Below are positions 5,172 through 5,671 of a stretch of DNA of 5,671 nucleotides, one piece after another. The first letter of the stretch is position 1. Every line of letters starts with the position of its first letter. A program made the position numbers and the translations under genes. A model generated the notes under the pieces. It saw only the letters and a list, made by a program, of their open reading frames with translations, was not told the DNA's origin and made no database searches. The DNA comes from a virus (lineage: Duplodnaviria; Heunggongvirae; Uroviricota; Caudoviricetes), in the IMG/VR virus record IMGVR_UViG_2648501186_000005. One strand, 5' to 3'.

Positions 5172-5509
5172 AATGTGAGAAATAAAAAAACGGTCCAGCT
5201 ACACAGAACCGGCCGGCGAAGACCGCCAATACCACCCATGCATTGATGCAACATACTAATGACAATAGCCGCTATTGATGTAAATGCAATGTTATGCATC
5301 GACGAAAATAAAAAACCGGCAGGGGAAATCCATTGAAGATTTGCCGGTGGCAAAAGAGGGCCATGCTTTTAACCTTAGTCGCAGAGTTACGGAGTGCAAC
5401 AACGACCGTCGCCGTTATCTTGCTGAAAGGCGTTTTAATGATTTTCATCAATTTATTCATCAGCAATGGTGATAATCACTCTCATTTGTGCGGGTCCTTC
5501 CGGTGGGGT

Positions 5510-5671
5510 GGCCTGCCACGGGGCGGCGACCTCGCGGGTTTTCGCTATTTATGAAAATTTTCCGGTTTAAGGCGTTTCCGTTCTTCTTCGTCATAACTTA
5601 ATGTTTTTATTTAAAATACCCTCTGAAAAGAAAGGAAACGACAGGTGCTGAAAACGGGCTTTTTGGCCTCT
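5510..5671 (+). other. Lambda-type cos site: cosN with 12-nt cohesive end GGGCGGCGACCT (5521-5532), then cosB (R3, IHF-type AT-rich segment, R2), running off the window edge
   Basis: 5521-5671 matches, almost base for base, the first ~150 nt of the phage lambda genome as I recall it, with a small difference around 5651-5660. It includes CGTTTCC (R3, about 5573-5580) and its inverse GGAAACG (R2, about 5634-5640) flanking an AT-rich stretch. The left half of cosN (5500-5520, GGTGGGGTGGCCTGCCACG) differs from lambda's right end (GGTGATCCGACAGGTTACG). The terminase small-subunit gene is expected just beyond the window. Confidence 0.85.

Follow-up and report, generated by a model that had tools for sequence, protein, structure and literature searches.

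The window, by which we mean the whole stretch of 5,671 nucleotides analysed here, very probably carries at its right end a complete cos site of the lambda type. Positions 5492-5671, together with about 15 bp that follow beyond the window, appear to form a mosaic site in which cosN is unaltered and the stretch that separates it from cosQ is a spacer allele common in nature; we place the probability of this reading at roughly 0.85. The site is of a known kind, and the combination of alleles found in it is rare. With this assignment, the predicted genome ends of a family of lambda-like prophages integrated at serT are now fixed.

Layout of the cos site

We extended the window into its source genome and aligned it with the joined ends of phage lambda (NC_001416). 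Lambda bp 1-133 correspond to window positions 5521-5653 without any change, which bears out the earlier sequence-only reading of this DNA, in which the 12-nt cohesive end and the cosB elements were described as essentially those of lambda. The 12-mer GGGCGGCGACCT is present in a single copy in the window, at 5521-5532 on the plus strand, and agrees with the lambda cohesive end at 12 of 12 positions. About 0.02 matches to it would be expected by chance in the window with one mismatch permitted, and this figure, together with the 133 consecutive lambda-identical bases, rules out a chance match as the origin of the 12-mer. Further to the right, up to the end of the window, the only differences from lambda are the substitution G134A (position 5654) and a missing A near lambda 137; they are located in the interval between R2 and R1.

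On the plus strand, the site begins with the heptamer GGGTCCT (5492-5498, equivalent to lambda 48473-48479), which is cosQ, the packaging termination signal; cosQ has been described as a highly conserved 7-bp element that is required for termination (PMC4669245). Next comes a spacer of 20 nt, TCCGGTGGGGTGGCCTGCCA (5499-5518, plus strand), in the place of the 21-nt lambda spacer TTCCGGTGATCCGACAGGTTA. Then follows cosN, CG-GGGCGGCGACCT-CG (5519-5534, plus strand), identical to lambda at 16 of 16 positions. According to the published definition, cosN consists of the 12 bp of the cohesive end and 2 flanking bp on each side, and is two-fold symmetric at 10 of its 16 positions (PMC9026076); the window has the same 10/16 symmetry as lambda, with CG at 5519-5520 and again at 5533-5534. 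Natural variation in cosN is mostly confined to bp 7-12, and the CG pairs at the nicks are conserved (PMC4669245). In lambda, the bottom-strand nick lies between bp 12 and 13, R3 at bp 50-65, and the start of Nu1 at bp 191 (PMC9026076); by the positions given there, the nicks in the window would fall at 5520/5521 on the top strand and at 5532/5533 on the bottom strand.

To the right of cosN, the AT-rich segment I2, which connects cosN with cosB, occupies approximately 5538-5570 on the plus strand (lambda bp ~18-50; extent according to PMC4856287). The first cosB element is R3, a small-terminase binding site with the sequence AGGCGTTTCCGTTCTT (5570-5585, plus strand; lambda bp 50-65). It is followed by the interval between R3 and R2 (5586-5628, plus strand; lambda 66-108), which holds the IHF site I1, located between R3 and R2 in the literature (PMC4669245) and placed by us to this interval only. 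R2 (5629-5644; lambda bp 109-124) is on the minus strand, inverted with respect to R3 and R1; the reverse complement of its 16-mer, AGAAAGGAAACGACAG, is found at lambda 151-166, that is, as R1, and the R3/R2 inverted repeat was recovered independently in a blind repeat search. The spacer between R2 and R1 (5645-5669, plus strand) contains G134A at 5654 and the 1-nt deletion near 5656. Only the first 2 nt of R1 are in the window (5670-5671, plus strand). The whole of R1, 5670-5685 in window numbering (lambda 151-166), is intact in the source genome just past the window, where it is identical to lambda and 1 nt closer. The R3-I1-R2-R1 order, the inversion of R2, the R sequences and the distance from cosN to R3 are all as in the complex cosB of lambda. 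All defined subsites of lambda cos are present, and they are correctly spaced on the initiation side. An Rfam scan of the window gave no match. The 9-mer AAGGCGTTT, with which R3 starts, is found at 5569-5577 and once more at 5427-5435, 94 bp to the left of the nick, the latter probably by chance.

The spacer between cosQ and cosN

About 20 bp upstream of the nick had been noted as unlike lambda, and so they are: the string GGTGGGGTGGCCTGCCACG at 5502-5520 matches the lambda string GGTGATCCGACAGGTTACG at 10 of 19 positions. The change had been assigned to the left half of cosN, and here the alignment tells otherwise; all 16 bp of cosN are those of lambda, the cosQ heptamer is intact, and the divergence lies in the spacer between them. 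Left of the nick, homology to lambda is patchy and extends for about 50 bp only, with a block at 5468-5485 resembling lambda 48450-48468. Following GGGTCCT, the spacer has CCGGTG with one T fewer than in lambda, then differs at 9 of the 12 positions from 5506 to 5517, and has CCA instead of the lambda TTA before CG; ACG directly before the nick is common to the window and lambda. The distance from cosQ to the nick is 1 bp shorter than in lambda. CCA usually precedes CG in the family of 20-nt spacers, so that their outer flanks mirror the CGCGG that is conserved to the right of cosN.

A scan of IMG/VR for cosQ followed by 15-30 nt and the lambda 16-bp cosN returned at least 120 loci, with 130 sites among the matches listed. 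The spacer of these 130 listed sites is 21 nt long in 126, 22 nt in three and 20 nt in one, and at least 30 distinct sequences are seen in its centre, so that divergence of the spacer centre is the norm. The parts that are mostly kept in the listed sites are TTCCGG after cosQ and (T/C)TA before the fixed CG. Although cosQ is invariant in the natural sample, the search patterns demanded cosQ, so its invariance is not independent evidence. The length of 20 nt is rare among the listed sites with the lambda 12-mer; the same spacing is abundant with other cohesive ends, and is also found with lambda-class gpA (see below).

We then searched IMG/VR for the exact allele, that is, the 20-nt spacer anchored by cosQ and CGGGGCGG, and it was present in 107 contigs, joined to seven right halves of the cohesive end (positions 7-12): GAGCGT in 56 contigs, AAGGCG in 18, CAGCGG in 16, GAGCGG in 9, the lambda sequence CGACCT in 6, and AGACCT and CAGGCG in one each. 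Many different I2 and cosB sequences follow downstream of the allele in these 107 contigs. The 20-nt spacers recovered in a fixed-gap scan make up a family of related sequences, with the consensus YCCGGTGGGGTGGCCTGCCA. The exact combination seen in the window is found in 2 of the 107 contigs that have this spacer, and in about 7 of 5,426 complete E. coli genomes, at 100% identity in three, 99.1% in one, 97.4% in two and 95.7% in one. Among 50,697 sequenced phage records there is none that combines the 20-nt spacer with the cosN and cosB of lambda; the best full-length match to the hybrid among phage records is 89.7% identical and has a 21-nt spacer. A scan of GTDB, with one genome per species, for cosQ, 20 nt and the lambda cosN gave a single match, in a contig of Streptomyces sp. 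DH12 (L345, 4592-4634), which we judged to be due to chance; the contig is 73% G+C and has no other similarity to lambda.

Terminases adjacent to the 20-nt spacer

We classified the large terminase encoded downstream of 177 natural sites. Where a 20-nt-spacer site had enough downstream sequence, it precedes a TerL of the class found in phage cdtI in 68 cases and lambda-class gpA in 21; a full-length gpA, 96-99.5% identical to that of lambda, is encoded in eight contigs that have the exact allele. The two TerL classes are 24% identical to each other, and both match the Pfam domains GpA_ATPase and GpA_nuclease. The small subunits that go with them come from two separate families, Phage_Nu1 and DUF1441. 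A tie between spacer length and terminase class is therefore rejected, since enzymes of either class were found downstream of 20-nt spacers among the 177 sites.

The co-occurrence with authentic lambda gpA leads us to infer that the 20-nt spacer is probably tolerated by lambda-type gpA, and these patterns suggest that the spacer is not a determinant of specificity. In natural genomes, the terminase genes of lambda itself are found together with a spacer that has 1 bp less than that of lambda and another sequence. In a broader view, the termination side of cos (cosQ, spacer and the left part of cosN) and the initiation side (the right part of cosN, cosB and the small terminase) assort independently in natural phages, and one termination side appears to serve very divergent terminases of the gpA family.

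A mosaic joint at the nick

A module of approximately 214 bp, of the kind found at the right end of phage cdtI, occupies 5307-5520 on the plus strand, its right edge being the top-strand nick itself. Position 5307 is where homology to cdtI begins; from there to 5520, identity is 96.7% with the final 214 bp of cdtI (AB285204) and 95.7% with phi458, and the cdtI record itself ends at the base equivalent to window position 5520. From 5521 rightward the sequence is that of lambda (about 99%), and upstream of 5307 it belongs to yet another lineage. Judged by these sequence relationships, the site is a mosaic, with a left module of the cdtI/phi458 type and lambda proper to the right of the nick, the spacer allele having been acquired from the cdtI-type lineage. 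Both parents have ACGGGGCGG in common (9 bp, 5518-5526), so the crossover must fall there.

In 265 non-identical natural sites, we examined whether pairs that are alike in one 200-bp flank (at least 90% identity) are also alike in the neighbouring one. Linkage across cos was 0.33-0.38, as against 0.75-0.91 between adjacent segments within the right arm and 0.98-0.99 toward cos within the left arm, and a second boundary was seen near -240 (0.34 in one direction), all of these values being indicative only, as the samples were picked by core sequence. This fits a view of cos and the block of about 210 bp to its left as points of exchange.

A bolder proposal is that this left block, with cosQ, the 20-nt spacer and the left part of cosN, is a freely exchangeable termination cassette used by the two 24%-identical gpA-family lineages, and may become attached to foreign initiation modules at a point inside the cohesive end, by annealing of heterologous ends. 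The terminase would package from a cos of one type to a downstream cos of a different type; the cohesive ends, matching only in part, would next pair and undergo repair, as opposed to ordinary recombination. Heterologous joining of lambda and N15 ends is known to be viable (Feiss et al. 2015, PMC4669245), and the joint ACGGGGCGG, at only 9 bp, is short for homologous recombination, which fits the end-joining route. We regard this scheme, taken as a whole, as rather unlikely; the 9-bp joint is compatible with an end-joining origin and does not demonstrate end-joining.

At 5305-5346, on the minus strand, there is a hairpin CCGGCA...TGCCGG (-13.5 kcal/mol, z = -1.6) followed by UUUUUUAUUUU, and its position coincides with the left boundary of the cdtI-type module at 5307. 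It has the appearance of an intrinsic terminator that would act on leftward transcription; a promoter and terminator scan missed it on account of its long loop.

The source prophage and its relatives

The whole window is 100% identical to positions 3017720-3023390 (minus strand) of the E. coli ETEC1706 chromosome (NZ_CP122904.1), the only genome with such a match. The element is a lambdoid prophage located between yccA and the tRNA-Ser gene serT adjoining hyaA, with its integrase on the yccA side. Upstream of cos it encodes Q, a DNA methyltransferase, two holins and a GH108 endolysin. In the window, the annotation of the source genome places ordinary late-region genes in 1-3756: the 3' part of the DNA methyltransferase gene (to 927), a DUF1883 gene (2083-2352, minus strand), the two holin genes (2552-2941 and 2931-3209) and the endolysin gene (3211-3756). 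The sequence-only reading had the window spanning the junction of lysis and packaging in an integrated or circular genome, and this holds, the genome being an integrated prophage. In the interval that separates cos from the lysis genes lies an ORF for a cysteine-rich protein of 71 aa (4859-5074, plus strand), MVFKHYYVNKNAQSNGDHEVHAEECSYL...CYWCANKCHTS, which is unannotated in the RefSeq source record.

Downstream of cos, ETEC1706 encodes a Nu1 that is identical to the lambda protein at 178 of 181 residues (Pfam Phage_Nu1, E = 3e-101), with changes at about residues 75, 112 and 132 that leave the N-terminal DNA-binding domain unaffected; its start is at +190, compared with 191 in lambda. Together with the lambda cosB, this agrees with the expectation of a lambda-like packaging neighbour. 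The rest of the right arm is reduced to lambda 1-1034, 1606-1764, 2193-3467 and 21824-22535, which are 92-99% identical to it. Two stretches are deleted within gene A (lambda 1035-1605 and 1765-2192), lambda 3468-21823, from mid-portal through the tail fibre, is missing, and the replication gene is frameshifted. With gpA broken and head and tail genes lost, the ETEC1706 prophage cannot make virions, and the site, which had been taken to mark exact virion ends, marks none of this prophage's own making there. The remnant is about 26 kb long, which by simple arithmetic is below the packaging size of lambda. No second cos was found in the 58 kb downstream in ETEC1706, from hya to pga (hya, app, gfc, tor, rut, put, efe); this is ordinary chromosome, and cos-to-cos packaging of host genes was rejected on that ground. 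A cos query of 116 nt had two further matches in the ETEC1706 chromosome, in a search that gives one place per record.

Intact gpA and morphogenesis genes in cis, which ETEC1706 does not have, were found in HCP5S3_I2 and in E. coli C41, where intactness of the prophages was judged from annotation only. The pig isolates HCP5S3_I2 and LCP30S3_I5 have the window at 99.9% identity. In HCP5S3_I2 the same prophage is at the same serT-hyaA site, the window equivalent differs at 3 nt, cosQ, spacer and cosN are identical, gpA agrees with lambda at 637 of 641 residues, and none of the genes from Nu1 to tfa is missing or flagged as a pseudogene. In C41, the 20-nt spacer, changed at one base, is combined with lambda cosN and cosB, a gpA identical to that of lambda at 641 of 641 residues, and a full set of head genes. 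In ETEC1738 the cos core is identical and gene A has an internal stop. The lysis region of ETEC1738 (L344, NZ_CP122768.1), equivalent to window 1-5116, is about 36 kb away from the identical cos, and genes of a P2-like prophage (integrase, replication endonuclease) are found between the two; a second prophage appears to have been inserted there.

Alternative explanations

[quoted passage not shown] Besides the 9 differing bases out of 12 at 5506-5517 and the spacer shorter by 1 nt, this draws on an older view of cosN as a 22-bp element, in which the sole change is TT to CC at -5/-4 (window 5515-5537, CCACG...CGCGG) and raises the two-fold symmetry from 10/22 to 14/22. With the published 16-bp definition (PMC9026076) the altered-cosN reading had to be rejected, as both cosN and cosQ are unchanged, and the spacer centre varies in any case among natural sites that have the lambda cosN. 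Co-evolution fares no better, for the same spacer allele stands beside the gpA of C41 (100% identical to lambda gpA), beside that of the IMG/VR contigs (96-99.5%) and beside the 24%-identical TerL; an allele found next to such different terminases does not co-vary with them. That the spacer type does not track the terminase type argues against a terminase-specificity variant, as had been suggested for this site; the spacer centre is naturally variable, and the allele occurs beside gpA that is 96-100% identical to lambda in modules that look intact. We consider this explanation very improbable, and retain that of a lambda-type cos with a natural spacer allele.

Two further explanations concern the element in ETEC1706. 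It is quite possible, at somewhat less than even odds, that the site is there an inert relic, which is never cut and decays with a dead prophage. The three missing lambda segments (1035-1605, 1765-2192, 3468-21823), the frameshifted replication gene, a remnant of about 26 kb, smaller than the packaging size of lambda, and the lack of a second cos within 58 kb downstream for cos-to-cos packaging of host DNA all speak in its favour. On the other hand, every defined subsite and Nu1 are still intact, intact siblings have the same site, and a helper of lambda specificity could still cut it; the two further cos-query matches in the ETEC1706 chromosome are to be remembered here. Even as a relic, the site would be a lambda-type cos. 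Extremely unlikely, in our estimate, is that the 26-kb element is a helper-dependent satellite similar to PICIs, keeping cos and the small terminase in order to hijack helper capsids. It does keep an integrase, cos and an intact Nu1 while having no capsid genes, and PICIs of Gram-negative bacteria have lambda-like cosQ and cosN (PMC9026076). Nevertheless, cosB and Nu1 are the ordinary ones of lambda and no redirecting protein of the Rpp type is present, the leftovers of A, W, B and tfa map as what deletions would leave of a lambda-like right arm of full length, a full-length sibling sits at the same att site, and the replication gene is frameshifted.

Proposed mode of action

The model of action is taken from the lambda literature (PMC4669245, PMC9026076, PMC4856287). 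A dimer of the Nu1 small terminase would bind the R sites (R3 and R2), while IHF would bend DNA at I1; gpA would thereby be positioned to nick the top strand at 5520/5521 and the bottom strand at 5532/5533. The predicted product has a 12-nt 5' overhang, GGGCGGCGACCT, with the left genome end starting at 5521 and the right end, ...GCCTGCCACG, at 5520. Packaging would proceed rightward until the next cos, where cosQ and cosN would direct the terminating bottom-strand nick. In siblings with intact morphogenesis genes, the same cos presumably sets the virion ends. In ETEC1706, cutting would be possible only by a terminase of lambda specificity supplied in trans; from general lambda biology, with no downstream cos, it would lead at most to abortive single-cos packaging on the hya-app side.

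Comparison with known cos sites

The window shares with lambda (NC_001416) cosQ, the 16-bp cosN, I2, R3, the I1 interval, R2, R1 and the distance from cosN to R3, as well as a small terminase of the Nu1 family that starts about 190 bp from the end. It differs from lambda in having a 20-nt spacer (21 nt in lambda) with another centre and CCA, not TTA, before CG, in two changes between R2 and R1, a substitution and the deletion of 1 nt, and in leftward homology limited to about 50 bp. With cdtI (AB285204) and phi458 (OP434518) it shares the 214 bp to the left of the nick, cosQ, an identical 20-nt spacer and CG/GGGCGG, the slash marking the nick; in these phages, however, the cohesive end is GGGCGGGAGCGT, different at positions 7, 8, 9 and 11, cosB is unrelated, the small terminase is of the DUF1441 type, and the gpA-family TerL is 24% identical to lambda gpA.

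In sites of the N15/Monarch type (L175 and three others) the same 20-nt spacer and the lambda 12-mer are joined to a cosB with GAGGTGATGGTTGTTGTT, which resembles the N15 R3 quoted in PMC4669245, and a lambda-like gene A is found downstream; unlike them, the window has the lambda R3-I1-R2-R1 cosB. The cos sites of Gram-negative PICIs are similar to the window in their lambda-like cosQ and cosN, in spacing and in belonging to an element that has no capsid genes (PMC9026076). PICIs are without R sequences and have Rpp instead of Nu1, whereas the ETEC1706 element has lambda R3, R2, R1 and Nu1, and is a deletion derivative of a full prophage.

Several IMG/VR contigs (L007, L014, L016, L031, L042 and L078) contain two convergent lambda-type cosQ-cosN sites, 550-900 bp apart and with their cosB sides facing each other, for example at 4162-4205 (plus strand) and 4714-4757 (minus strand) in L014. 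The spacers of such a pair are not the same (TTCCGGCATATGGACCCGTTA and TCCTGGAATTATGGCCCGTTA), and the R3 of one site is like that of N15/Monarch; these may be two cos-bearing elements that abut head to head.
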